64,000 nt of DNA from Eledone cirrhosa. Taxonomy: Eukaryota. The stretch is from assembly GCA_964016885.1 (NCBI GenBank), contig OZ024743.1, forward strand, positions 269,700,001-269,764,000, given 5' to 3'. Positions within the stretch are counted from its first letter, which is position 1, and each line of letters starts with the position of its first letter. The notes under the pieces were generated by a model. That model was given only the letters and a program-made list of their open reading frames with translations. It did not search any database and was not told the DNA's origin. A program made the position numbers and the translations under genes. This document shows, one piece after another, positions 12,155-62,640 of this stretch.

Positions 12155-13135
12155 TAGGGTGCCCCTTAGCAATAGGTAATTTTCTGAAATTTAAAGTTTT
12201 GCAGCTAATCCTCTTCCAATCAACAAAACCACGGGGTCTGCAAAATTTAAGCTCAATCGGACAACTGCTAGGCGACCCCCAAACGCCTTGAAGTTGGAAC
12301 ATATTACACACAACGATTAATTCTGTTCAAAAGCGGTATACTGTTCTCTATCTCGACAATTTTCCGTTTTGTTCATAGAAAGATTTATGTGGACACATCC
12401 AGGCAACCCCAGAAAATGTTTAAAACCGTTCTGAATCAAATTTACCAATAGTTAATTTGAAAAATTCCTGAAATAACATGAAATACTTAAGAAATATTAA
12501 GTTTTCTTAAAGCACACAACCTCTATAAGAGAAACGCATTTTTATTTACAACAATAATTTCTATAGAATCAAAAACAAATGTGAACACTTAACACTGAAT
12601 ATTGAACATTACTTTGGATTGGCAGTATCGGTAGAGGGTCGGTCGCCATATTTAGCAGCAAAGAGTTACGGCCGTTTATGGTCTGAGTTCAAATCCCGCC
12701 GAGGTTAACTTTGCCTTTCATCCTTACGAGGTCGATAAAATAAAGTACCAGTAATGCACTGGGATAATCGCTTGCATTGTACCAAAAGTAGAAACAATTA
12801 TTTTTGCATAAGAGAGGATTTAGTGGCACTTGGGTATGTTTACGGTTTTCGGTAACGATCTGTAAAACAAATTGTTTATCAGTTTTATCTTTTGTGAGAA
12901 TGTTATTGTAATTCTGAATGAGTCTGACACCTCTTTCTGCAACATCATTCACAACAACTGACTTCTCAAGTTTTTCAAGTCCACTTCTGTAACCAGGATC
13001 ATCCTTCTATGTTGAAGGGTCTTTGTCGAGGAAATCGGTGCTGATAGAAAATTTCGTGAAGAAATTTTTGTACCAGGAGTTACAAAAGACGAAAACTCGA
13101 TATTTGTAAAGGAAGAAAAGTCATTTTCGTGCAGA
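12155..13135 (-). mobile_element. hAT-superfamily (hATm-like) DNA transposon right end with transposase C-terminal remnant
   Basis: Terminus TAGGGTG at 12155; minus ORF VNDVAERGVRLIQNYNNILTK..KQFVLQIVTENRK; interrupted by a SINE. Confidence 0.7.
12615..12800 (+). mobile_element. tRNA-derived SINE inserted in the hATm remnant
   Basis: tggcagtatcgg A box, gagttcaaatcc B box, core cctttcatccttacgaggtcgataaaataaagtaccag. Confidence 0.85.
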
Positions 13136-18062: not shown

Positions 18063-20360
18063 TTAGGGAGAAGTGTTTAGACGGGGTCCGTATTTGTTAA
18101 TAAAGTGAGATTCCTTGCTGATGCGCTGGGTGTGGGTGGCATTATCTTTAAATTTGTAGAGGGGAAAGATTCTGAAGTTGGGATGATTTTGGGCGGCACA
18201 GGTATCAATGTGTTCACTCAGTGGTATTTTCCTGTATTCCCGTATTTTAATTTGGGATCTATGGACAGTCATGCGTTGGCGGAGGCTGTTTTTGGTCTGG
18301 CCTATGTATTGTTCTCGACAACCTGAGCAAGTTAATACATATATTAGATTTTCTGATGCGCATGTGAAATTGTGTTTTACTATAAAACGTTGTCCTTCTT
18401 TGAAATAGAATTCCGAACCCTCTATTAGGTTGATGCATATGCGAACAGTTGGGTCTATCGCATTTTTTTACTGTGGGTTTCGTTGTTGTGGTTGGCAGTA
18501 ATTTGGCATGTGTTAGGATGTTTTTCATTGACTTAGATTGTCTTTTGCTCTTTATGATATCGTGTGTTCGTAGGATTTGGTTCATTCTATGGTCCTTTTT
18601 CAACACAGGGATGTTCTGGAGGATGGTGTCAAAGGCCTCATTGTTGAGGGGGTTGTGTGATGAGATGTATGGAAGAGTTTTTAGTGTCGGTTGATTTACT
18701 TTAGGGTGTCTAAGGTCCTGGGTACTGAGTTTTAGGGCACGTTGGATTCCATTGTCAATTAGTGATGCAGGGTAGTCCCTGCCTATGAGTGTGTCCTTTA
18801 GTTCTTGTAGCCGTAAGTAGCAGGTGTTTTTATTGGAGACTATATTACAGATTCTGTTGGCTAAGTTGTAGGGAATATTAATTTTAACGTGTCTAGGGTG
18901 GCAAGAGTTGAAAGGAAGATATTGCTTGGAGTCTGTGGGCTTGTAGTATATGTCTGTTTCTATTTTTATGTTATGGATCTTAATGAGGATGTCGAGGAAG
19001 GGGAGTTGTTGATGGCTGTATTCCATCGTGAAGTTAATATTCGTGTTGAGCCCATTTATAAGGGTGTGAAATTCTTTAAGTTTCTCGATGTTTTCGTGCC
19101 AAAGGATGAAGCAGTCATCTAGATATCGCTTCCAGTTCCTTTTTATGTGTAAGTGGAGAGTGTTTCCAAATTTGTTTAGGACTTTAGTGTAGAGGGTGAT
19201 TTCCAGGTATCCCATGACTAGGTTGGCATAAGTGGGGGCTGTTTTCGTTCCCATAGCGGTCCCAGATTTCTGCCTGTAGGGTTTGTTATTGAAAACGAAG
19301 TAATTGTTCTCCAAGATAAATTTGAGTCCCTCTATCACGAATTCTTTTTTGATGCGTGTGGGAGTTCATTGTGGTAATTATCCAGCCAGATTTGGATAGC
19401 TTCTATTCCTAGGTTGTTGGGGATGTTGGAGTATAGGTTGACTACATCGAACGTCACTAGTAGGGTTTGTTCAGAAAGGGGCATATTAGGGAGGTGATTG
19501 AGCATATCTAGGTCGTCCCTTATATAGCTTTTGATGTGTTTGAGAAAAGGCTTGAGAAGGGTATCAATGAAGTTGCTAAGGCGGTGGGTTTCGCAAGCGC
19601 GGCCTGCTATTATAGGTCTTAATTTGAGATCATTGGGTGAGGGGACATTGATGACTATGTCTGTGGCTTCCTTGCATGCCTTACTTATTAATTCGCTTTT
19701 ATGTACTTTTATGTACCGTAAAAAAGGCTGGATTTACTTGTGAAGTCTGTGATGAAGCTGAATTCCTTGTTAGTGAGTCCTTCTTTGTATTGGTTGATCA
19801 GAGTTTTTAGGTTTCTCATAATTTTCTGTTGATTGTAGTATGTTTCGTTTTCCAAAGTGGAGAGCGCTAAGTTGATATAGAATTCTGTCTCCATTAGGAC
19901 TACTGTATTCCCTTTATCAGCCTCTTTAATTGTAATGATTCTGTCGGTTTTTAATCTACTTAATTCTTCCCATTCTTTCTTGTTGAGGTTTGGCTTGTGT
20001 TTTTGTCTGTGCAAGTGTTGGTAAAGGAAGTTTGTGATGTGTTCACAGAATTCGTCCAGGATTTTATTTCTACCTTTTGATGGGGTGTAATTGCTTCTAT
20101 TTCTGGCTAATGATTCATCCTCATTGTACTGGTCGAATAGTTCTTCACTGAGTCGTAACTTTCTACAGAAATCTGTGATGTCTTCCTTCATTTCATAGTA
20201 GATAGGACGTAGTGGGTCGGTGTGAATTTAAGACCTTTGGAGAGTAAGATGATAAGGTTGGGTGTTGATTCTGCACTAGTTAGATTGATAATTTTTATTA
20301 CTCTCGGTTTCTCCTCCTTGTCTTGTGTTATTTTGTTTGCCTGTATCTGTGTGTTGTGTC
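18063..20360 (-). pseudogene. PLE reverse transcriptase + GIY-YIG endonuclease (several frameshifts)
   Basis: IINLT..LLSKGLKFTPT; ADKGN; GTAMGTKTAPTYANL; RYLDDCF; LPFLD; YYKPTD..YL..SCHP; KKCDRPNC/ICI linker; NLIYVLTCSGCREQYIGQT..RMTVH..GPRLN. Confidence 0.92.
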
Positions 20361-21182
20361 TAAAAAATGGTTGGGGTAGAGGGGTTGTCTGCTGATGTTA
20401 AGTGGTCTCCTGTGTTTGTTATATTCCTTGTTGTTGTAAAATGTGGTTCGTGGTTGTAGATTGAATGGGGTGTTCCTGTATTGCGAGTATGGATGTGTGT
20501 TTCTATGTGCCATGTTGGATTGTGGTGTTATAGGCGGCCTACGTTGTTGGTTATATTGTGTGGTGTGGGTTTGTTGTGTATTGTGGAAGCGAGAGTTGAG
20601 AAAATGGTAATTACCTTGCTGTCCCCTTGAAACGGGGAAGTTGTTACATCTATCATGGTGGTGGTATCTTTTCCCTATGTTTGACGATGAGGCATCCGCG
20701 TAGTAGTTGAGTGATTTGGTATGGTGTCTCCTTGAAGGGGGAAAGTTGTAAATGTCATTCTGGGGGTGATGATTTCTAGGGTTTTTGTTCCTTCTTATGG
20801 AAGCGAGGTTGGGAAGTTCATCTTCGGTGTGGTGCTTCCTTCTTCTTTTGTTAATGGCGGGGGGGGGGGGGGCGAAGTTGTTGTGCGGTTCAGTTATGGG
20901 TTTTCCTATTTTCATGAACGGGTTATTGGAGGTGTAATCCGTTTGAAAAGTCGATTCATAGTTTAGGAACCAAGCAGCACTTTTTTCCCAGCGTTGAAGG
21001 GATTTCAGTTCTTCTCTGTTGCAGTCCCCTTTCCATAATTTAGAGATCTTCTCTACCTTGGGGCCTTCAGTTTTATTGTTGATTTCCAGGAGGATCTCTT
21101 CATCGAAGGTTTTGATTTTTTCCTCATTTGTCTGGGCCCTCAATTTAAGAAGTTCAATTTCTGTCTTCATTTTTTCCAATGT
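20328..21182 (-). CDS. PLE upstream ORF (5'-truncated; charged helical N-part, basic/low-complexity C-part)
   Basis: Open 285+ codon frame directly upstream of and overlapping the RT frame; ends HFLDTTHRYRQTK*. Confidence 0.65.
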   Translation of the reverse strand, partial: TLEKMKTEIELLKLRAQTNEEKIKTFDEEILLEINNKTEGPKVEKISKLWKGDCNREELKSLQRWEKSAAWFLNYESTFQTDYTSNNPFMKIGKPITEPHNNFAPPPPAINKRRRKHHTEDELPNLASIRRNKNPRNHHPQNDIYNFPPSRRHHTKSLNYYADASSSNIGKRYHHHDRCNNFPVSRGQQGNYHFLNSRFHNTQQTHTTQYNQQRRPPITPQSNMAHRNTHPYSQYRNTPFNLQPRTTFYNNKEYNKHRRPLNISRQPLYPNHFLDTTHRYRQTK

Positions 21183-21693
21183 CATATATATATATATATA
21201 CACTTGTGAAATTGATAAACTTATTCTGAAATTATATCTGACAAGAAGACAGTCAAGTTAAACTTGTAAATAATATCTTATATACCAGTGAAAAACACAT
21301 CCAAAAATACATAAATTCACACACAATTACACATATAAACAGATGTACTCACTCACGCATATAAACTCACGTGCACAGACTCATACATAGACATACATAA
21401 ACACGTATAAAATAAAAGACATAATCACAAACAGGAACGCAGAACGAAATACTAGTACTCAATCACACGTATACGCATAGATACTCACATAGAAATGCAT
21501 GAATGCATGTATACATACATGATGGCTGCCCCCTCGTTATCGAGTATAGCCATTGCACGAGAAAAAAAAAATAATAAAAAATAATAAAAATAATAATAAT
21601 AATAATAATCTGCAGGTAGTGGCTTGATATTCAATCCAACGGACTTTCCAGTTAACCAACATCAATGACTGAGATTCAAGGAATAACAATAAC

Positions 21694-21992: not shown

Positions 21993-24900
21993 CTAACAGC
22001 GCTGCGATCGAATGTAGCTTTTTAGCCCAGCCAATGATCTAAAATGTCTTGCACAGAGTCGGCAACCAAAACATTTACTGGGAATAGTCGGCTGTGGTTG
22101 GAGTTCGTGTACTTGTGCATGTCGCTTGAGCCCTCCTGCTGATTTACATTCTCTACCACATGTTTGGCAAGCATGATGAGTAGCATCTCCAACAGCAGCC
22201 TGGTAGTCAACCACTGGTCTTACTTTATGACTGCGAAGATGACTTTCGAGTCCAGCTTTGCTTAGGCAGAGTCTCGCACATACGCTGCATGTCAGCACCA
22301 TAGGAGGACCCTCGCCGTCTGGAAGTGCAACAGCAATGCTCTTCCTCACATCCCGCTTTACTTTCTCGTATGCGATTCGAGATGCCTCAAAGGCAACTTT
22401 TCCCTCATATACAGTCTTTCTCCATTTATTACGATCAGCAGCAATATTCTCCCATGTATCAGCAAAGATGTTAGCGTCTTTCAGAGAGGCTTTCAAGGAA
22501 TCCTTATACCTCTTTTTTGGTTTATGTGGCGGTCGTTTTCCTTTAACCAACTCTCCATAAAAGAGTTGTTTTGGTATTCTAGAATCCTTCATCTTGGCAA
22601 GGTGACCACTCCAACGGAGTCGTTGCTTAAGCACAAGAGCTTCTATACTGTCACACATAGAGCTTTCCAAAATCTCGACATCACTGATGTGGTCCCTCCA
22701 GTGAACGCCATGGATCCGTCTGAGACACATCTGATGGAAACGTTCCAATTGCTTAAGGTGGTGTCGATATGTGACCCAGGTCTCGCAGGCATAAAGAAGT
22801 CAAGAGAGCACACATGCCCTGTACAACTTTACCTTTGTCCTCCTGCATATATCTCGCCGACCCCAGAGTCGCCTTTCTAGCTTTCCGAAAGCATCACTTG
22901 CTTTCCTAATCCTAAGTGAGATCTCACTGTCAAGGTTGCTGTATCGATTGACAGTGCTTCCCAGGTAGACAAACTGATCAACCACTCCAAGTCGTTTGCC
23001 ATACACATAGATGTTTGGTTCAGTGTACTGCTTACCAGGGGCAGGTTGGTACATGACGACGGTTTTCTTGAGACTGACAGTCAGACCTAGGGCAGTGCAA
23101 GCGTCAGAAAATGCATTCAAAATGTGCTGCATATCACTCTCTGTGTGCGCTACAAGATCGCAATCATCTGCATACAAGAGGTCTCTTAAGATTGATGTAA
23201 ACACCAAAGCGCCTGAGGTTCGATATCGGATGTAAACACCATGCTCGCAATTCCTGAATGCAATACAGAAAACCATTGCAAAGTATATGGCAAACAGGGT
23301 CGGTGCTGGAATATCCCCCTGCTTCACTCCATTTTTTACTGAGATAGGCTCCGACATGTTACCCCCGACATTAACCCAAGCCTTCATGTCGTCATGGCAA
23401 CCAAGTTTCTGGAGAAACTTCCATAATGCATCTCTGTTAACAGTATCAAAAGCTTTTGTCAGATCGACAAAAACCTGATACAGATCCAAGCCTTTTTCCA
23501 TGCACTTCTCCTGGAGCTGTCTAGCTGAGAAGATCATATCAGTAGTGCCGCGTCCAGCACGAAAACCAGTTTGACTTTCAGGAAGAACACAATCTGCAAT
23601 GTGTGTCAGCAGACGGTCCAGAAGCACCCTACATAAAACTTTCCCTACGACAGAAAGCAATGATATACCTCTGTAGTTCCCACAATCGTTCCTGTTACCC
23701 TTTCCCTTGTACAAGACCACCATTACTGCATCTCTCCAGTCCTCAGGTACGGATTCATTAGCCCATATCCTGCCAAACAAAGAGTGAAGATGTTGCAGGA
23801 GTCTCTCACCACCATATTGTAGGAGCTCAGCATGTATGTCATCCATACCTGGAGATCTTCCACTGTTCAGCTTCGAAATAGCCACTGCGACCTCCACAAG
23901 CGTCGGAGGTTCTGCGAGAGCTACTTTCACAGGACTTTCTGGAATGAGATTGAGGAAATCTTCACTGACGACAGACGGCTGATTCAAAAGATCATCAAAG
24001 TGCTCTCGCCACCTTCGTAGAATTCCTTGTGAGTCACGAAGAATTTCTTTGCCATCCTTGCTGCGAAGCGGTGTCACCAGAGAAGAAGACGGTCCATAAA
24101 CCTCACGCAAGAGACTGTACAATAGCTTTGTGTTATTGGAATCAGACGCAGTTTGTATCTCACCAGCCTTCTCACTCCACCACTGATCCTTCATCTGAGA
24201 AAGACTCCGCCTAACACGTGATTTTACATCCCTGAGTTCCTCATGCAACGTATTCCTCTCCTGTGGTTTTGCCGTCAAGTAGCGTGACAGAGCACGCCTC
24301 TTATCAGCCAACAAGTCTTCTATATGTACATCATTCTCATCAAACCAGTCCTGATGTTTCATCTGCGCCAATCCCAGAACACGCCTGCCTACATCATAAA
24401 CCGACTTTTTAAGGGTCGGCCAATCCTCACCAAGATCTGCAGCCTGCATCTCTTCTTCCAATGTCCTCTTCACATTTTTATCCTTAAGACGAGCAGTATT
24501 CAATCTTTTGGGCAGGGCAACACCAGGAGCCCGGATTTTACGTTTAGTGATTAGTTTCACTTTTGCGCATACCAGGCGGTGGTCCGTCCAGCACGCAGCT
24601 CCACGAAGAACACGAACACACTGCACATCCTGTCTGTCACGCATCCTGACTAGGACGTAGTCCAAAAGATGCCATTCCTTAGATGCAGGATGCATCCATG
24701 TGGTCTTGAATTTGTTCTTTTGTTGGAACATGGTGTTGGTAACACACAGATCCAGCTCCTCACACATCTGCAGCAGGAGCATACCATTGCTGTTACACTT
24801 TCCCACCCCATGCCTTCCGATTACATTCCATGTGTTAAAATCTCTACCCACTCTAGCATTAAAGTCACCAAGCACGATGACTTTGTCCGCCTGAGGGATA

Positions 24901-25469
24901 TTTCTTAAAACACCTTTCAAGGCATGGTAAAAGGACACCTTTTCCTCATCGACAGAACTCATAGTTGGAGCATACACACTCACCAGGGTAGCATATCTTC
25001 CCTTGTCCAGCGGAACTCTCATGGACATAAGACGCTCACTAATCCCTACTGGGAATTCTTCTAATTTGTTCACAAGCACAGTCTTAACAGCAAATCCTAC
25101 CCCAGCCTCTCTTCTGGTTCCTTCATCTCTTCCTTTCCAGAAGAATGTATATTCTTCACAAAATTCCGTAAGATGACCATCTCCAGCTAGCCTCGTCTCA
25201 GATAAAGCCACGATGTCAAGATCGTAACGTCGAAGCTCCTTTGCAACAAGAGCGGTCCTTCGTTCAGGACGCTCCAACGAATCCCTGTCAAGCAGCGTCC
25301 GTACGTTCCAGCAGCCAAGACTAAATGCCTTGTTTGGCTCTATTACAATGGCACGATGACGAGCGGGCCCAGGCTGTGATAACCTGGGGCCCCTGCCCTT
25401 ATTGCCAATGATCTTTTTTGTTCCAGAACCTAAATTGCCAATTATCTCTTTTATATTGTTCTGGAACAT
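21993..25469 (-). pseudogene. RTE LINE ORF: AP endonuclease + RT + three C2H2-type fingers; one in-frame TGA at 22800-22802
   Basis: WNVRTL, ALSETRL, VYAPT, LGDFNA, DYVL, TDH; NYRGISLL, FVDLTKAFD, GVKQG, LYADD, YLGS; RLRWSGH..RIPKQLFYGEL; CxxC..H..H repeats; short in-frame deletions. Confidence 0.93.
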
Positions 25470-25534
25470 GATTGAATTGGGAAAAAAAAAAAATTATAAT
25501 AATAATAATAATAGTACACTATTAATAATTATTA

Positions 25535-25720
25535 ATTGTTTCTACTTTTGGCACAAGGCCAGCAATTACCCAGTGCATTACTGGTACTTTATTTTATCGA
25601 CCCCGTAAGGATGAAAGGCAAAGTCAACCTCGGCGGGATTTGAACTCAGATCGTAAAGGGACGTAACTATGCTGGAAAGCATGGCGTCCGACCCTCTACC
25701 GATACTGCCAATCCACCGCC
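25535..25720 (-). mobile_element. tRNA-derived SINE (young copy) inserted in the RTE 5' UTR
   Basis: Nearly identical reverse complement of 56823-57012. Confidence 0.9.
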
Positions 25721-26147: not shown

Positions 26148-26178
<31 letters not shown>

Positions 26179-26231
26179 GAGATTCCTGATGATTTCTAAT
26201 GAATGAAACAGTTCTAGTCCTGTAGAATCTC
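26179..26231 (+). ncRNA. Type I hammerhead ribozyme (F5) in element ~26179-26313
   Basis: gagattc-CTGATGA-tttc taat gaat-GAAA-cag ttctagtc ct-GTA-gaatctc; 7-bp stem I and a paired stem III. Confidence 0.88.
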
Positions 26232-26925
26232 ATCTATATTAAAACTGTTATACTCTGCTATGTATTGAGTACCTTACTTACTGTGGTTACCTCCGATTCA
26301 ACCCGGAATAACGTATATATATATATATATTACCGTCATTACTGATACAAGATTACAAGATTATGTCAACTGTTGACTTTCAAGAGTTTGTATAGTTGAA
26401 GCCGATCGTACTACAGTCCAGTATTATTATAATTGCTTTACAGCATAGAGTCACGGCCCTCCACGCTCTGAGCTCAAATCCCGCCGAGGTCAACCTTGCC
26501 TTTCATCCCCACGGAGTCAACAAAAGAGAGTACCAGTGATGCGCTGGGCCAGTCGCTGGATCCGTGCCAAAAGCAGAAAAATTATTATTAAAGTTGTTTT
26601 CTTAAGGCCAGGTCGCTGGTGATGGTGATGGTGGCGGCGGTAATGGTGGTGGTGGCAGTTGATGTTGTTGTTGTGTTGTGTGCGTGTGTGTGTGTGTTTT
26701 GTTATTTTGAGTTGTTGTTTTTTTCCCCTTCTTTTTCTTTTTTTTTTAATCTTTTGATGCCGCTGTTGTTGTTGTTGTTGTTGTAAATGTTCATTTCAGT
26801 TCATTCTGAAGCTGTTGTTGCTGTAAACATTAGAGCCGGTGTTGTTGTTGTAGATGTTGGGGTTGAAATCTGGTCGTTTGACTGAGTGATGTATATACAC
26901 ACATATACATACATATATATATATA

Positions 26926-27390
26926 TACAATATTAAATAAATGGAAAACTATATTTATAAAACCATATTTATTTCATTATATATATTTCGGGGATATCAT
27001 ATTAACAATATGCTATGCCTTCATCAGACAAAATACAATATAAACAGTTTTATAGATAAATATATTCGACATACCGTAATAAACATCAACTTCATTTGAA
27101 GAGGTTTACGCTAGCGTAAACCTCTTCAAATGAAGTTGATGTTTATTACGGTATGTCGAATATATTTATCTATAAAACTGTTTATATTGTATTTTGTCTG
27201 ATGAAGGCATAGCATATTGTTAATATGATATCCCCGAAATATATATAATGAAATAAATATGGTTTTATAAATATAATTTTCCATTTATTTAATATTGTAA
27301 ATATACTCCAAATATTTGTCGAGTGCTTTTATATCAGTTATAAATATTTACTAGTTGTAACCCAACAATTTTAAATATAACTTTACATAT
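26926..27390 (+). mobile_element. Fold-back HHR element (F4-related): 374-bp spacer-less palindrome plus 3' extension
   Basis: 26926-27299 is self-complementary about 27112/27113 (one mismatch seen). CTGATGA at 27198 and GAAA at 27236, mirrored on the minus strand. Confidence 0.8.
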
Positions 27391-31636: not shown

Positions 31637-31686
<50 letters not shown>

Positions 31687-31689
<3 letters not shown>

Positions 31690-31850
31690 CGAAGGAATTG
31701 TGGTAAGGAACCAGATGGACCATAACGCACCAAATTACTCAATACTTAGGGTAATAGAGTGGGTAATAGGAACAAGTATGATCCCGACGGCAGAGCTCAA
31801 GCCGTTTCAACGACTTGAGCTCTGCCGTCGGGGTCATACTTGTTCCTATA
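31687..31850 (-). mobile_element. Hairpin-headed mini-element family F8, copy 1
   Basis: Homologous to 35609-35818 and 36527-36720; terminal hairpin 31766-31848. Confidence 0.75.
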
Positions 31851-32779
31851 TATATATATATATAATATAATATATAATATACATGATTCACGTGTATGTT
31901 ACATCATGTCTTATATATAAAAGTTATAAAAAGTCCTAGGCCCACCGGGAACATCTCAACGGCCTACATGTGGATAACATCATACCTACATAAAGTCCGA
32001 AGCCTACAGTGAAAATCTCAACAGCCCACATATATGGTAACTCGTATATTACATAAAAACATTTGAAAAACGTCAAAAGCTTACAAAGAACATACCAGTG
32101 ACCCTCCTCTCGGTCGCAACACATCTGTAATTATTTGATAGTCTATAGAAATACATCACAAATGTCTCTACAAGAAGCAGAAGCTGAGTAATGTAATATA
32201 GAAGACTGTATGATGTTATCCAGCTTGTTTTATTCAAGGTTATAGAGGAAATAAGGATACAGATTGGTACTTGTGTTATTTTGGTTTTGTTAATAATACC
32301 AAAGTTAATTCCGATCGAGCACATCTAAAAACAAAGTCATAAACATGCAATCAGTCTTTGGGATGTAGTTATTTAACCCTATGTTATTCCACTTTTTAAG
32401 ACGGGATTTGAAGGAATTTTGGCTTCCATTTCGAGCAAATTGAACGACCAGGTATAGCTTCCACCACAGGATCATAGCAACAGTGTTGCTAGTTCAGCAG
32501 TTGTAAGAATTGTGTTAGGAACAGTAACGAGTTCTTCACATAAGTGCACCACTTACAGTCAGTATCATGTGTTTATGCCGAAGACAGCCTCCATAAATGG
32601 TTACAGCAAAATAATTATTGAGAGCCTTAGATCAAAGAATTGTTCCTTGGTCTAGGGCTCTCAATCAATTACTGTGGAACTTCGAAAATTGTGAATCCTA
32701 TCTATCTACATTTCAATTGCAACAAAGAGAGAGGAGGGAGAAACACATACACACACTCATTTTATGTTAGACCTCTGTC

Positions 32780-35560: not shown

Positions 35561-35608
<48 letters not shown>

Positions 35609-35611
<3 letters not shown>

Positions 35612-35814
35612 AAAAGGTTCAGGACCCCAACAGCAGAGCTCAAGCCGTTTCGACGGCTATATCTGGACTATATCTTAGTTCAGATATAGCCGTCGAAACA
35701 GCTTGAGCTCTGCCGTCGGGGCCCTGAACATTTTCCTATTACCCACTCTCCTACCCAAAGTATCGAGTACTCTGGTACGTTATGGTCCACCTGGTTCCTT
35801 ACCGCACTTCCTTC

Positions 35815-35818
<4 letters not shown>
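35609..35818 (+). mobile_element. Hairpin-headed mini-element F8, copy 2
   Basis: Hairpin 35609-35738, then a unique 3' part, in (TA)n. Confidence 0.75.
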
Positions 35819-35874
<56 letters not shown>

Positions 35875-36045
35875 CTCTCCCAATTTCCTCTCCCAATTAG
35901 CATATATATATATATATATATATATATGCTAATTGGGAGAGGAAATGGTATATAAATATATATATATAATGGTATATATATATATTATATATAATGGTAT
36001 ATATATATATTATATATAATGGTATATATATATATTATATATAAT

Positions 36046-36095
<50 letters not shown>

Positions 36096-36229
36096 ATTTC
36101 CTCTCCCAATTAGCATACATGTTTTATGATATATAGCTCTGATTATTTAATTTATTAATTTTCATTGAGCCACAACGTGACCTGTTGCAAAACACATATA
36201 TATCTATGACTTTATATATATATGTAAAC

Positions 36230-36340
<111 letters not shown>

Positions 36341-36381
36341 CGAAACATAAGTCAATTGCATGAACTCATATTCCTTTATTT

Positions 36382-36437
36382 ACTGCTATATATATTTCGA
36401 TGATAGCCATTGAATGGCTATGGCCTCATCAGACAGT
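36382..36437 (-). ncRNA. Type I HHR (F1 copy 3) within element 36336-36500
   Basis: actgt-CTGATGA-ggccatagccatt c aatggctatcatc-GAAA-tatat-ATA-gcagt. Confidence 0.82.
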
Positions 36438-36496
36438 TAGTCAGTTCTTAGATATGCCAGCTCTGTGTTTATGGTGTTGATGGTATCAGTGCCTTG

Positions 36497-36526
<30 letters not shown>

Positions 36527-36527
<1 letters not shown>

Positions 36528-36718
36528 GGAAAAGGTATGACCCCGACGGCAGAGCTCAAACAGTTTCGACGGCTATTTCTGGACTCAGAAATAGCCGTCG
36601 AAACGGTTTGAGCTCTGCCGCCGGGGTCATACCATTTCCTATTACCCACTCTACTACCCTAAGTATTGAGTACTCTGGTGCGTTATGGTCCATCTGGTTC
36701 CTTACCTCAATTTCTTCG

Positions 36719-36720
<2 letters not shown>
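36527..36720 (+). mobile_element. Hairpin-headed mini-element F8, copy 3
   Basis: Hairpin 36527-36641, then a unique 3' part, in (TA)n. Confidence 0.75.
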
Positions 36721-36776
<56 letters not shown>

Positions 36777-41504: not shown

Positions 41505-41965
41505 AGGGTCATATAGTTATAATATTGCTAGAAATATATAATAAAACACACTCACTGTTTGGTTTGAGTTGGTTTTCACTTCCATATATTTTATAGCCCT
41601 ATAGGTAAATTGACTGGCAATCAATGTTTTGCCAGGAAGAGGCAAAGAGACCCACCCACACACAACTACAATACTATTATTTAATTTTTATATCGAATAA
41701 ATCATTTTTTTTTTTAATTTCCTCTCTATTTCTGTGATTGCAATTGACCGTAAAATTGTAAAGTCAAAATACGGATTATAGAATATATTAAAAATGCCTT
41801 ACCTTCTCCAATAAAAAAAGGTCTTCGGAAATATATACAACCGCAATATATATATATAGCACCTCGTCCCTCAGGTACCACTGGTTCACTGCCCTAAACA
41901 CGGTGTGACATCTCTCTGCCGCATGTAGCTGGATTCTCTTCGAGTTGTCTGGGATGTATAGTCTT

Positions 41966-42047
41966 GCACGCGCTGATGAACCATAGGCTATTCCATTTCA
42001 GTCAACAACTTCTTGGAGAAATTATCTCTTTGGATTTGTACGCGTGT
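41966..42047 (+). ncRNA. Type I HHR (F7, diverged copy) in element ~41858-42125
   Basis: gcacgcg-CTGATGA-acca...tgga-GAAA...tt-GTA-cgcgtgt. Confidence 0.75.
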
Positions 42048-42138
42048 GTTATATAGTTATAGAGGTACGTATATACATTTTAATTTATATTTTTTATTAT
42101 TGTGTTTCTACCCTGCTTTCCATAGTATATATATATAA

Positions 42139-42175
<37 letters not shown>

Positions 42176-42225
42176 ATTTATATATATATACTATGGAAAG
42201 CAGGGTAGAAACACAATAATTAGGA

Positions 42226-42276
42226 AGCTTCCTGATAATTTCTCACGAATGAAACAGTTTTAGTCCTGTAGAAGCT
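42226..42276 (+). ncRNA. Type I HHR (F5 copy 2; CTGATAA core)
   Basis: agcttc-CTGATAA-tttc tcac gaat-GAAA-cag..ct-GTA-gaagct. Confidence 0.7.
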
Positions 42277-42507
42277 CTTCTATATTAAAACTTTTATACA
42301 CTGCTATGTATTGAGTACCTTACTTACTGTGGTTACCTCCGATTCAACGCGGAATAACTTAAATATAATATATATATATTTATGTATACATATATATATG
42401 AGGATATGCGTGTATGTGTTTGTGTGTGCATGTGTTTGTGTGTGTGCATGTGTGTGTGTGTGAGTGTTGGTGTATGTATATATATATATATATATGTCTC
42501 TCTGTGA

Positions 42508-43899: not shown

Positions 43900-44223
43900 T
43901 ATCGGGGTCGATAAAATAAAGTACCAGTAATGCACTGGGTAATTGCTGGCCTTGTAGAAACAATTATTATGGATTGGTAGAGGGTGGGACGCCATGCTTT
44001 CCAGCATAGTTACGTCCCTTTACGATCTGAGTTCAAATCCCACCGAGGTTGACTTTGCCTTTCATCCTTACGGGGTCGATAAAATAAAGTACCAGTAATG
44101 CACTGGGTAATTGCTGGCCTTGTGCCAAAAGTAGAAACAATTATATCCTTACGGGGTCGATAAAATAAAGTACCAGTAATGCACTGGGTAATTGCTGGCC
44201 TTGTGCCAAATGTAGAAACAATT
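43900..44223 (+). mobile_element. SINE with triplicated 3' core
   Basis: ggggtcgataaaataaagtaccagtaatgcactgggtaattgctggcc occurs three times. Confidence 0.85.
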
Positions 44224-44330
44224 AAATGAAACATACACACTCACATTCGTACATAAAACATACACACACGCGCGCCCGCACACGCACACACATACACACA
44301 TATACATATACATACATGTACAACTTGTGA

Positions 44331-44366
<36 letters not shown>

Positions 44367-44369
<3 letters not shown>

Positions 44370-45147
44370 TTATTTACGCTTTAATTTATATTTTTAATTA
44401 TCGTGTCTATAGTCTGCCTTTCATAGGTTATAGATTCCATACACTGGTGGTTTTTTCCCTGTATTATTGATAACGCACTATATATCTCTCTCTGGTGTGT
44501 TACCTTCTCAACATATTATATTTTAAAGGGCTCAGGATCTTTTCCCCTTTGAGCACATTATTTACAGGGAATAACGACGGCCTATGCCTCCGTTAATTTA
44601 TCGTGATATTTCGCTCCTAACAACAGCCTTTCCTATCTCTGTTAGGTTGAGCACTCTTCTCTGAGTGGCTTTGGGCTGCCCTTTCTAGCAGTTCGTCTCT
44701 CAGAGGCCACTGGTTCACTGCCCTTAAACACGCTGTGACTTCTCTCTCCCACGTGTAGCTGGACAGTCAATTGTAAAATTCTCTTAGTGTTGTCTGAAAT
44801 GTATAGCCTTACACACGCTGATGAACCGAGACTACCATTTCTTTCAACAATTTTTCTGGTGAAACATATCTTTGGATTTGTACGTGTGTTATATAGTTAT
44901 AGAGGTATTTATTTACGCTTTAATTTATATTTTTAATTATCGTGTCTATACTCTGCCTTTCATAGGTTATAGATTCCATACACTGGTGGTTTTTTCCCTG
45001 TATTATTGATAACGCACTATATATCTCTCTCTGGTGTGTTACCTTCTCAACATATTATATTTTAAAGGGCTCAGGATCTCTTCCCCTTTGAGCACATTAT
45101 TTACAGGGAATAACGACGGCCTATGCCTCCGTTAATTTATCGTGATA
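44367..45147 (+). mobile_element. Retrozyme-like HHR element F7: 539-bp monomer plus ~240-bp direct repeat
   Basis: 44367-44609 repeats at 44906-45147 almost perfectly; (TA)n on both sides. Confidence 0.85.
44811..44889 (+). ncRNA. Type I hammerhead ribozyme (F7)
   Basis: acacacg-CTGATGA-acc...ggt-GAAA-ca...t-GTA-cgtgtgt; 7-bp stem I. Confidence 0.88.
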
Positions 45148-45317
45148 TATATATATATATATATTTAAACATATATATATATATATATATTTTAACATAT
45201 ATATATACACAGAGAGAGAGAGGGAGAGAGGGAGGGGGGAAGAGAGAGAAGTGAGTAGAGACGGATAGACAAACACGGCTATATATACAAACGTATCATT
45301 TCCCCCCTCTCTGTCTG

Positions 45318-45982: not shown

Positions 45983-47567
45983 TTCTTCTGGTTTTATAAT
46001 TTCACAAAGTTTTACCAATAGAGAGAGAATCGGTTTCTAACATAGACACAAGACTCTCTCATTGGAATTTACACAACATCAACTAGGTAGATATGTATGT
46101 ATGCATGCCTGTGTAGATATGGATGTTATTGTATGTGTGGATATATATGTTTTGAGTTGTATGTGTGCATGTGTATATGCTTTGCATCTGTACATGTGTA
46201 TATGCAGTTATTAGATGCAACATTTTTGGAATGTTTTACATATTTTTACTGTTCCATTGATGGATTGTACTTGTAATTTCCTAACTAGTTGTGTTCTTTC
46301 TGTTCCTGTGAAGCCTAGCTTCTCAAGATTTGTATTGAGGCAGTTACTAACATACCCCAGTGCATAAATCTGAAGGCGTAATTAGGGTGGAGTATCTGCA
46401 GATTTCTCATCAGTTCTGCATAACTATTCTCCTTTTCACTAATCTTTGATATTATATTGGCATCTGCTGGGTAGCTAATTTCCACTACTGTGCATGCTTT
46501 CTTCTCCCTGTCCCATATCATAATATTTGGTCTGTTATGCCTGTATTTTATTGGGGTTTTTACTGGAACATTCCACCAGTACTCTTTCATATTATGTACA
46601 TGGATGTCTTCCACATTGTTGTAGCTTTTAATGTGTTTATTATCGGGGCTATCTTTTTTACGAACTGCATTGTACAGTGTTTTGGCGACTACATCATGCC
46701 TCATAGGTAGATAGTACCGCGATGACATCTTTGGACAGCTGCTGATGACATGGGTGATATCTTCGATGTTAGTTCTGCAGAGTCTACACTTGTTATCACA
46801 TCTAGGTGTTTTGCCTGCATCCCTATCTCTTTTGTGAATTAGGTATTTCGTGCTAATCTCCTGTTCCTGGATTGCAAAAGTGTATCCTTCAAAGTGGGAG
46901 CCAATATAGCGGTTGTTGGTCCAAGATAGACTACTTTCCTTATCTATATTACCCTCACTCTGAAGCTTCCTGGCAACATATCCATGCATGATTTTTTGCT
47001 GATAGACATGCAGTTTTTCATCCATGGATTGATTGCGATACTGCTGAGCGACATCCCTGGGTGTGAGTTTTTGATTATCACACAGAGAATATCTCTCAAG
47101 GAGTTCCTTCCCAACTTTCATGATCTTATCTGTTTCATGCAGATAGACTTGCTCGAGAAACGGACTCCTACGCTTCGAGGTTCGTAGATGTTGTCGGAGA
47201 GATATGATGCGACATTCAAATGTTGTCTGGACTGATGTTAGCCCCCCCCCCCCCGCTTACGTTTCAAGTCACTGTTGATGTGGAAGTTTCCGGTGTTGTT
47301 CAGTATTTTTCGAGTTCCAACATCAATTGCTCGGATTTCGTCTATCGTCCAATTGAGTATTCCAAACGTTGGTGTTAGGACAGGCACAGCAAACACATTG
47401 TGAGCCACTGTTTTGTTTTGCGCAGAGAGTTCCGATGACCAGATCTTTCTTAATCGGGTGTAGTATTCCCTGGTTACGCGTTCTTTATTACAGATACCAT
47501 TATAGGATATGTTCTCATCTATCCCCAGGTATCTGTAGCAGTCCTCATCAGATATCGGTGAAACATT
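45983..47567 (-). mobile_element. 5'-truncated R4/Dong-like non-LTR retrotransposon (CCHC + restriction-like endonuclease)
   Basis: ORF 46315-47121: AIQEQEISTK, CRLC..EDITHVISSC..Y..RHDVVA, HNRPNIMIWD..VVEISYP..K; flanked by (TGTA)n. Confidence 0.85.
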
Positions 47568-47662
47568 TATGTATGTATGTATGTATGTATGTATGTATGT
47601 ATGTATGTATGTATGTATGTATGTATGTATGTATGTATGTATGGATGGATGTATGTCTATAT

Positions 47663-48272
47663 GTCAGGTCACCACTTGGTGCTACTGGTAACATGTATCC
47701 CAGTACAACCTGTCTCATGGTCGGGTCGTTGGCGACTAAACTGGCAACCCCACTAAGGTTTCTTGGTGAGGAGGGTGACTTTGGACATCCTGCAGGACTA
47801 AAAACAAAACCTGTCAAAGGGCAAAGGAGCTCTTAAGAGTCAATGGCCATCCAAAATCACTGGGAGAGATGACCCCTTAGCCTTTGTCAAGGCAGAATTC
47901 TAGGAGAAGGAAAACTCTGATATAACACCTGCAACCCTGATGGTATCCAATGATGTTGACTTGTTCTTCTTTTTGGTAAATATGATCTTGGTTAAGAGAG
48001 TGGGACTGGCTTTGTGCAGTGCCTTTGCTCACTATAAAAGCTTCACGGCACAGGCATTGCTTTATATCTGGAGATCTCTCTGCACTTGCCGTCACATGGT
48101 ACCATGGGCCCAGCACTATGTGTCAATAATTGTCACAAGTGTAGTGTTTGTACCAGAGTTTTCAAGTCGCTGGCTGGACTAAAAAGTCACACTCGTTCAG
48201 CGCATCGGTAGGGGTTCTCCTACATGGATATAAAGTAGTGGCCGTACTCGAAAACGAGTTGGCAGCCACCAT
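47663..48272 (+). mobile_element. Bipartite non-autonomous RTE derivative, copy 3
   Basis: Near-identical to 27916-28521; in (TGTA)n. Confidence 0.85.
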
Positions 48273-56822: not shown

Positions 56823-57012
56823 GGGCGGTGGATTGGCAGTATCGGTAGAGGGTCGGACGCCATGCTTTCCAGCATAGTTACGTCCCTTTACGATCTGAGT
56901 TCAAATCCCGCCGAGGTTGACTTTGCCTTTCATCCTTACGGGGTCGATAAAATAAAGTACCAGTAATGTACTGGGTAATTGCTGGCCTTGTGCCAAAAGT
57001 AGAAACAATTAT
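56823..57012 (+). mobile_element. Full-length young tRNA-derived SINE
   Basis: ggcggtggattggcagtatcgg (A box), gagttcaaatcc (B box), conserved core, AT-rich tail. Confidence 0.9.
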
Positions 57013-57192
57013 GTATGCATATATCTGTAGATTATATATTACTTGGCGCCTATATTAATTTAGTTAACCATATCTTACATGCTTTGGGAGACAGATTAAG
57101 AAAAACTATGGAAGACAAATAAAAACTATGGCAGGCAAATAAATTCAAGAGAACACATCTCCCGCAAAACAATAAATAAATGAATAAATAAA

Positions 57193-60959: not shown

Positions 60960-62640
60960 TAATAATTGTTTCTACTTTCGGCACAAGGCCAGTAATTTGT
61001 AGGGAAGAGGAAAGTCGATTAAATCGGAAGGATTTGAACTTGTAAAGGGCCGTAACTCTATGCCACGAAGCATGGTGTCCGACGCTCTACCGATACTACC
61101 AATCCACCGCACTTGTTATATATAATAATAATTGATTCTACTTTTGGCACAAGACCAGCAATTATCCCAGTGTATTACTGGTGCTTTAGTTATAATAATA
61201 ATAATTGTTTCTACTTTTGGCACAAGGCCAGCAATTATCCCAGTGCATTACTGGTACTTTATTTTATCGACCCCGTAAGGAGGAAAGGCAGAGTGAACCT
61301 CGGCAGGATTTGAACTCAGACCGTAAATGCCCGTAACTCTATGATTCAAAGCATGGTGTCCGACTTTCTACCGATACTGCCAATCCAGGCACAAGGCCAG
61401 AGATTTTTGAGAGAGGCTTCACCTAATACTATTGACTCCGGAAGGATGAGAGGAAAAGTTGAAACAGGCGGGAGATTTACACGAAACATGAAGAGCTCTA
61501 AGTAAGCAAAAAGCATTTTGTTCGACGGTTTAAGGCTTCTGACAATCCAACACTTTTCCGTAATAATTGTTTCTATTTTAGGCACAAGGCCAGCAATTAT
61601 CCAGTACATTACTGGTACTTTATTTTATCGACCCCGTAAGGATGAAAGTCAAAGTTAACCTCGGCGGGATTTGAACTCAGATCATAAAGGGACGTAACTC
61701 TATGCTTCAACATGGTGCCCGACTCTCTACCGATACTGCCAATAATGGTTTCTTCATAGATACAAGGCCACGCGTTTTTATTAGCAGGATAGTGGTAGTA
61801 ACGGAATACTGGAATAAATAGACATACACATATATCTGGGATTTACTCAAACGACATACTGTAAAAATGGTTTTTACTTTTGGCACAAGACCAGCAATTA
61901 TCCCAGTGTATTACTGGTACTTTATTTTATTGACCCCGGAAGGATGACAGACAAAGTTTACCTCGGTGAGATTTGAAATCAGATTAGAAATGGGCGTAAC
62001 TCTATGCTGCAGAGCATGGCGTCCGACCCCCTACCGATACTGCCAATCCACCGCCCTGTGACATACTGTAATACTAGTTTCTGATTTCGGCAAAGACCAA
62101 CAATCGATTAAAACGATCTCAGTACGTTACTGACTGTTTATTTCATCAACCACGTAAGGGATGACAGGCAAAGCTAACCTCGACGGGATTTGAACTACCG
62201 ATACTGCCAACCCACCGTCATGCTGTAATAATTGTTTCTATTACCCAGTACATTACTGGTACTTTATTTTATCGACCCCGTAAGGACGAAAGGCAAAGTT
62301 AACCTCGGTGGAATTTGAACTCAGGCCGTAAAGCTATTCTAGTATTCCATCACTACCACCACCCTGCCAATAAAAATACGTGGTCTTGTATCTATGAAGA
62401 AAAATAGGGAGCTGGATTGTCATACTGTAATAATGGTTTCTTATATAGGCACAAGACCATCAATTTTGGTGGGGGGTAAAGTCAATTAAACCGACCCCAG
62501 TGCGTGACTGGTACTTTATTTTATCGACCCCGTAAGGATGAAAGGCAAAGTTAACTTCGGCTTGATTTGAATTCAGATCATAAAGGGCCGTAACTCTATG
62601 CTGCAAAGCATGTTGTCCGACGCTCTACCGATACTGCCGA
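60960..62640 (-). mobile_element. Cluster of ~8 head-to-tail SINE copies and fragments
   Basis: Repeated ctaccgatactgccaatcc heads and gtactttattttatcgaccccg cores, all on the minus strand. Confidence 0.85.

Follow-up and report, generated by a model that had tools for sequence, protein, structure and literature searches.

The window, the whole 64-kb stretch that was analysed, is animal DNA rich in microsatellites. Between two (TA)n tracts lies an insertion, 44367-45148, comprising a 539-nt unit (44367-44905) followed by a second copy of the unit's first 243 nt (44906-45148), so that the whole spans about one and a half units (~1.45). The two repeats (44367-44609 and 44906-45148) are identical at 241 of 243 positions; the mismatches are 44412 G/44951 C and 44541 T/45080 C. 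Thus the 539-bp monomer with a near-perfect 240-bp repeat, proposed in the initial annotation, is borne out by self-comparison. The unit is 39% G+C, non-coding, and without LTR structure; a six-frame check of 44367-44905 found no long ORF.

The locus contains one hammerhead ribozyme motif, and so by itself could not free a 539-nt monomer. Numbered from the predicted cut site, after 44882, the insertion runs from +24 to a 3' end at +262 to +266. The terminal ATAT of the second repeat is common to the (TA)n flank, placing the 3' end anywhere in 45144-45148. The features are as follows.

18063-21257, minus strand: decayed Penelope-like ORF, reverse transcriptase and C-terminal GIY-YIG, frameshifted (domain matches)
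41857-42125, plus strand: second family copy, 78% identical, 5'-truncated, in (TA)n (alignment)
44334-44366, no strand assigned: left (TA)n target (sequence)
44367-44609, plus strand: first copy of the repeated segment, +24 to +266 (self-comparison)
44610-44905, plus strand: single-copy portion of the unit (self-comparison, ORF check)
44789-44809, plus strand: predicted helix P0, 5' strand, immediately 5' of stem I (pairing analysis, read variants)
44811-44889, plus strand: type I hammerhead (complete core, stems, family conservation)
44829-44848, plus strand: 3' strand of predicted P0, within the large loop II (pairing analysis, read variants)
44906-45148, plus strand: second copy of the repeated segment, 3' end at +262 to +266 (self-comparison, contig ends)
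45110-45134, plus strand: predicted hairpin, 10-14 nt before the 3' end, present also at 44571-44595 (folding)
45145-45164, no strand assigned: right (TA)n target (sequence)

The hammerhead comprises stem I, ACACACG (44811-17) with CGTGTGT (44883-89), 7 bp; the core elements CUGAUGA (44818-24), GAAA (44861-64), and GUA (44880-82); stem II, 44825-28 with 44857-60, 4 bp; and a six-pair stem III, 44864-70 with 44875-81. Copy 1, as the hammerhead in the 539-nt insertion is termed here, therefore displays the features of a type I ribozyme: CUGANGA, GAAA, and UH core motifs, three helices, and an open stem I. The initial annotation described this motif as intact. Its position, stem I, and core are as described there, but stem III carries a U.U mismatch (read as G.U in 61 of 205 reads from public run X14) and the base of stem II is A-U, not G-C. 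Indeed, this stem II base pair is non-standard in the family: A-U, A.C, or A.A. Rfam searches returned no hammerhead match in 44600-45000 up to E 10, and no hammerhead family among the best 150 of 224 matches over the whole window; microRNA matches in the window were dismissed as microsatellite noise. The isolated motifs of copies 1 and 2 fold no better than shuffled sequences (44 and 20 of 200 as good). Identification consequently rests upon the complete core, the stems, and conservation within the family, features from which self-cleavage would be predicted.

The second copy, at 41857-42125, contains a hammerhead at 41966-42047 with stem I GCACGCG (41966-72) and CGCGTGT (42041-47). Relative to copy 1, the third pair of this alternating purine-pyrimidine stem is changed from A-U to G-C, and the seventh from A-U to G.U. 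Both differences, interpreted originally as compensatory, are real. As evidence for selection, however, they are weak: only one pair is changed on both sides; both changes in that pair are CpG-type transitions; and stem III of copy 2 is broken, with A.A at the base of stem II. Furthermore, MAFFT aligns the 3'-side change as a 2-nt CG insertion, a variant present in 59 of 431 X14 reads. An X6 contig (record 16 with its loose end) appears by eye to join the stem I of copy 1 to a longer 3' arm, which makes a true substitution plausible. Substitutions between the two copies show neither the bias of RNA editing nor a strand bias (A>G, G>A, T>C, and C>T, 7 each).

Copy 2 extends from about -197 to +83. 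Its last 28 nt and the irregular (TA)n flank are repeated in inverted orientation at 42098-42218 (98% over 126 nt), and another hammerhead repeat follows directly. This inverted repeat could be either a DNA-level fold-back during insertion or an assembly artefact.

Parts of the insertion were present in 11 of 15 listed public runs. In run X1, 2010 contigs matched it, with a summed depth of 4e3-1.2e5 compared with 7-30 for single listed pieces; summed depth is a rough measure rather than a copy number, and depth was noisy throughout. The 539-nt family is abundant, and this rough estimate suggests that it probably numbers thousands of copies. Pattern scans of viral and metagenome contigs gave no matches.

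Both junctions of the unit recur in these reads. Two distinct contigs among those listed, X1 record 1 (24 differences) and X6 record 14, run across the joint at 44609/10 with 31 nt or more to either side, and about 430 X14 reads cover it. The joint between ribozyme and tail is found also in copy 2, X4, and X7. Because both junctions are common to diverged records, the 539-nt unit is heritable rather than the product of a single slip. Head-to-tail multimers are a separate matter, as short contigs cannot display dimers.

The reads also bear on constraint. Of the 27 positions in the core and stem I, none carries a listed variant, whereas 12 of the remaining 52 ribozyme positions do (Fisher p=0.006), counting the best 40 of 114 and the best 40 of 60 variant rows, although copy 2 itself differs in stem I. 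Together with the P0 helix described below, these data support selection on the ribozyme at the level of the family. The earlier proposal that the structure is selected is thus upheld, but on this basis rather than on the lone stem I pair.

The 21 nt immediately upstream of stem I are complementary to loop II, a feature absent from the initial annotation and noticed post hoc, after inspection of the sequence. The resulting helix, P0, is predicted to be an interrupted pseudoknot in which loop II pairs with the 5' flank of stem I over ~20 bp. In copy 2 it is near-perfect (41944-64 with 41985-42006), with all 7 proximal positions and 12 of the 14 distal ones paired and a duplex energy of -21.4 kcal/mol, unequalled by any of 2000 shuffles. 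Copy 1 pairs 5 of 7 proximal and 11 of 14 distal positions, at -11.6 kcal/mol, and 3 of 2000 shuffles were as good. P0 is the best partner site among 171 unit windows in copy 2 and 440 in copy 1. When the wider region was shuffled, 1 of 500 (copy 2) and 18 of 500 (copy 1) did as well; the same test on six control hammerheads gave 24 of 500 for one and at least 79 of 500 for the other five.

Read variants repair two of the copy 1 mismatches: 44831, A to G in 110 of 165 X14 reads, and 44843, T to G in 75 of 157. The latter is the sole variant in 44836-44849 among the variants listed. Differences between the two copies include changes from A-U to G.U; linked two-sided changes were absent from the copies and variants compared.

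P0 begins at the ends of stems I (7 bp) and II (4 bp), and it is predicted to join their distal ends, bracing the ribozyme. In this it resembles the pseudoknots reported by Perreault et al. in 2011 (PMC3088659), who, in the portions of the paper at hand, describe pairing between the distal ends of stems I and II in about 40% of hammerheads, of all three types, and a requirement for these pseudoknots in fast cleavage. The examples tested there involve five or six pairs, in contrast to about 20 interrupted pairs here, in an animal retrozyme. Among the titles and abstract openings listed for octopus hammerhead ribozymes and for type I retrozyme pseudoknots, none describes this family or a retrozyme pseudoknot of such length; the mussel ribozyme drawings in the PMC7229834 supplement are relevant to whether a helix like P0 has been depicted before. 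The long pseudoknot is the more distinctive point about this element, and may explain why a ribozyme stays uncut in the template.

Geometry suggests how. The return linker of 8 nt can hardly span the full P0, which may put its distal pairs in competition with stem II. Conceivably, then, P0 gates the hammerhead as a folding switch: proximal pairs would brace the ribozyme, whereas the full ~20-bp helix, too long for the linker, would disable it. Such a switch is unlikely on present evidence. If it does operate, the RNA would alternate between a cutting form, yielding monomers or circles, and an uncut form copied by a Penelope enzyme, which would account for more-than-unit copies that pass through a ribozyme.

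How did the insertion acquire its ends? Three of 18 listed contig pieces stop at 44609, equivalent to +266: X4 record 9, followed by ATATATAT; X4 record 10 (13 differences); and X1 record 1 of a separate listing (16 differences). Two of the three are 10-13% diverged, and X4 record 9 is possibly the same locus in another sample. X1 depth falls across 44611/12 from 88,370 to 37,395. The contigs that define these ends are short and their depth is noisy. No fall in X14 depth is seen at 44609; the X14 reads are likely from a RAD library, cut at AATT restriction sites, and so are unable to reveal the 3' end. Pile-ups at 44595/98, 44772/77, 44852, 44925, and 45135 were rejected as element ends because they coincide with AATT sites.

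The 3' ends comprise a recurring position, 44609, and a second, +83, in one copy. The 5' ends vary: +24 in copy 1 and about -197 in copy 2. Both window copies and one contig end lie in (TA)n. Five opposite-strand joints were listed, one readable as head-to-head. Of the inverted joints, two terminate a short way upstream of the cut, at -13 and -2, but clustering of such ends at the cut site was not significant (3 of 10 within 25 nt, p=0.06).

The partial tandem and inverted structures and the variable 5' truncation of a non-autonomous Penelope-like element are thus present. According to the sections available of PMC8557442, the Penelope-like footprint comprises partial tandems, inverted 5'-truncated copies, a tail, and a microsatellite bias; its standard form is a partial tandem whose internal 3' end is fixed (PMC8557442, PMC11167929). 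Purified Penelope protein, as reported in the consulted parts of PMC11167929, nicks AT-rich DNA, uses mainly uncut RNA, and in vitro initiates reverse transcription from two internal positions beyond the hammerhead. Features of Penelope hammerheads are described in PMC4209133, and a circle model in PMC7761336.

Comparison with known systems covers the available text of the cited sources. Like animal non-LTR retrozymes (Cervera and de la Pena 2020, PMC7229834; Li, Clavereau and Pollet 2026), it is non-coding, carries a type I hammerhead, has a G+C content under 50% and a high copy number, and is found alongside Penelope-like elements; its length falls inside the 51-972 bp range of the 2026 retrozyme survey (bioRxiv 10.64898/2026.07.22.740005). 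Unlike these, it has one ribozyme rather than two, a predicted circle fold that is not rod-like, and a large loop II predicted to pair with the 5' flank; and at 539 nt it exceeds the 170-400 nt units of circle-forming animal retrozymes. The 2026 survey defines an active retrozyme by two ribozymes, so the present element is filed as a dispersed derivative of the family.

Like endonuclease-positive Penelope-like elements (PMC8557442, PMC11167929, PMC4209133), it shows a partial tandem, variable 5' truncation, inverted arms, and (TA)n targets; its hammerhead sits close to the 3' end, and beyond it an extension runs to a recurring terminus. It differs from them in having no ORF and in the length of that extension: 83 or 266 nt, as opposed to a tail of 30-40 nt. 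The 266-nt extension counts against a Penelope-type reading. The six-pair stem III likewise departs from the minimal hammerhead of most animal Penelope repeats.

The non-coding unit, type I hammerhead, low G+C, and lack of LTR structure support the retrozyme-like class proposed originally. On sequence criteria, the element appears to be an animal non-LTR retrozyme, or non-autonomous Penelope-like element, and it is very probably a Penelope-mobilised hammerhead repeat. Insertion into (TA)n by a Penelope-like reverse transcriptase and endonuclease acting in trans is likely. The (TA)n targets, the recurring 3' end, the variable 5' ends, and the inverted joints all point to target-primed reverse transcription by a Penelope-like element. 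One such element, decayed, lies in the window at 18063-21257; a linker cysteine motif, judged by eye against a feature given in the portions seen of PMC8557442, suggests the Neptune/Nematis type. Comparison of the 539-nt element with this region of the window (blastn, tblastx) found low-complexity matches only.

This suggests a model, in which cleavage, template form, and partner element are all inferred. A tandem source locus would be read through to give a linear multimeric RNA. An upstream hammerhead would create the 5' end of this RNA, while the next stays uncut. A Penelope-type enzyme would nick (TA)n and begin reverse transcription from a fixed position inside the RNA, which lies at +262 to +266 relative to the cut (at +83 for the second copy) and would be marked by the 3' end of the second repeat. 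Synthesis would then run back through the uncut ribozyme and halt before reaching the cleaved 5' end, 23 nt away from it, at a point where TA-like sequence immediately after stem I is able to pair with the target. For this mechanism as a whole, including the enzyme in trans and the linear read-through template, the chances seem about even. That Penelope-like elements mobilise retrozymes, and whether from circular or linear templates, has been proposed but not demonstrated (PMC7229834, PMC7761336, and bioRxiv 10.64898/2026.07.22.740005, in the sections available). An abundant family with readable ends offers a means to test both mobilisation and template form.

The principal rival retains the element and the Penelope-type enzyme but substitutes a 539-nt circle, made when a multimer elsewhere is doubly self-cleaved and ligated, and copied from +266, 1.45 times round, with strand displacement. 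This was the reading preferred in the initial annotation, which took the more-than-unit layout as the product of reverse transcription around a circular or multimeric RNA. The multimeric RNA that the annotation also allowed is favoured here; the layout is not diagnostic of a circle, because Penelope partial tandems with a fixed 3' end, and linear read-through RNA, give the same result. Nor would shared ends refute a circle, since linear and circular templates alike should give a fixed 3' start. Coral, mussel, and axolotl retrozymes have been shown to form circles, for which a role as templates is proposed (PMC7229834, PMC7761336, parts available), and an RNA circle from this family is possible. 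The circular fold of the unit is stable (-130.3 kcal/mol, z -3.7, 0 of 60 shuffles as good; minus strand z -1.8), and transitions at confidently paired sites keep the pair in 11 of 13 cases (55% expected, p=0.025). Yet the paired fraction is 59% compared with 56% in shuffles, which is not rod-like; moreover, of 20 listed variants at confident pairs, 9 break them and 11 keep them, none two-sided. Folding thus lends modest support to a conserved whole-unit structure outside the ribozyme. The 99% identity of the repeats also suits a circle, as do the inverted-joint ends at -13 and -2, which need an uncut or circular template and so count against cleaved linear RNA. Against it stand the single ribozyme at the locus and, in vitro, the dominance of unprocessed RNA as template (PMC11167929, parts available). 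Two further points weakly favour a linear template over a circle. One is the proximity of the 5' end to the cut, no more than 25 nt, which chance alone would give about 5% of the time; this is a single case, however, and microhomology to TA could produce it whatever the template. The other is a site, 44412/44951, at which each repeat carries a different family allele. On balance the linear read-through template is slightly favoured; the circle is the less probable reading, but a substantial contender.

Two other explanations were weighed. The unit might be satellite-like, derived from a Penelope terminal repeat and spreading mostly at the DNA level, through unequal exchange and local duplication, its ribozyme a relic of earlier selection. 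Local amplification of units derived from terminal repeats has been proposed in bioRxiv 10.64898/2026.07.22.740005, where, in the portions available, cleavage is reported for only 1 of 9 tested elements; helices are damaged in both window copies. This explanation is nevertheless improbable, given dispersed copies in (TA)n, recurring 3' ends, inverted joints, and a core conserved across diverged copies. Least probable is a one-off partial tandem with no heritable unit, whether an enzyme slip on a truncated Penelope 3' end or a 243-nt duplication. Such slips could plausibly give rise to partial tandems, but this explanation is largely refuted by the 44609/10 joint in diverged contigs of two runs and in the X14 reads.

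Other mobile elements and repeats also lie in the window. The longer ORF piece in 46315-47663 (minus strand), a region of retrotransposon-like ORF fragments with a CxxC/H motif, has no Pfam match. A non-LTR retrotransposon ORF at 21993-25493 (minus strand) encodes AP endonuclease, reverse transcriptase, and C-terminal C2H2 zinc fingers, and is broken by a stop. A SINE-like family of ~190 nt forms partial tandem copies at 43903-44227, just upstream of the 539-nt element, and occurs in at least 10 more places, for example 12615-12810, 25523-25720, 56823-57024, and 61007-62638. Another repeat family, at 35569-36772 and 31647-31884, ends beside (TA)n in a long G+C-rich hairpin of varying length.

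Several other short hammerhead repeats in the window adjoin (TA)n. Further type I hammerhead-like motifs occur at 575(+), 9459(+), 15960(-), 36432(-), 36877(-), and 55386(-), mostly with minimal stem III; several have a short extension before (TA)n, and some are inverted. A second hammerhead family, at 26178-26315 and 42226-42377, has U.U at the base of stem II, and its stem I covaries between its two copies (AGATTC/GAATCT and AGCTTC/GAAGCT); the 42226 copy has lost core residue G8. The 3' hairpin of this second family terminates in GGAATAAC, which recurs ~35 nt before the 3' end of the 539-nt element. Finally, 26920-27305 is a near-perfect head-to-head palindrome with unequal arms, set in (TA)n and bearing one hammerhead per arm (27027 minus, 27198 plus); it is a Penelope-type two-armed insertion.
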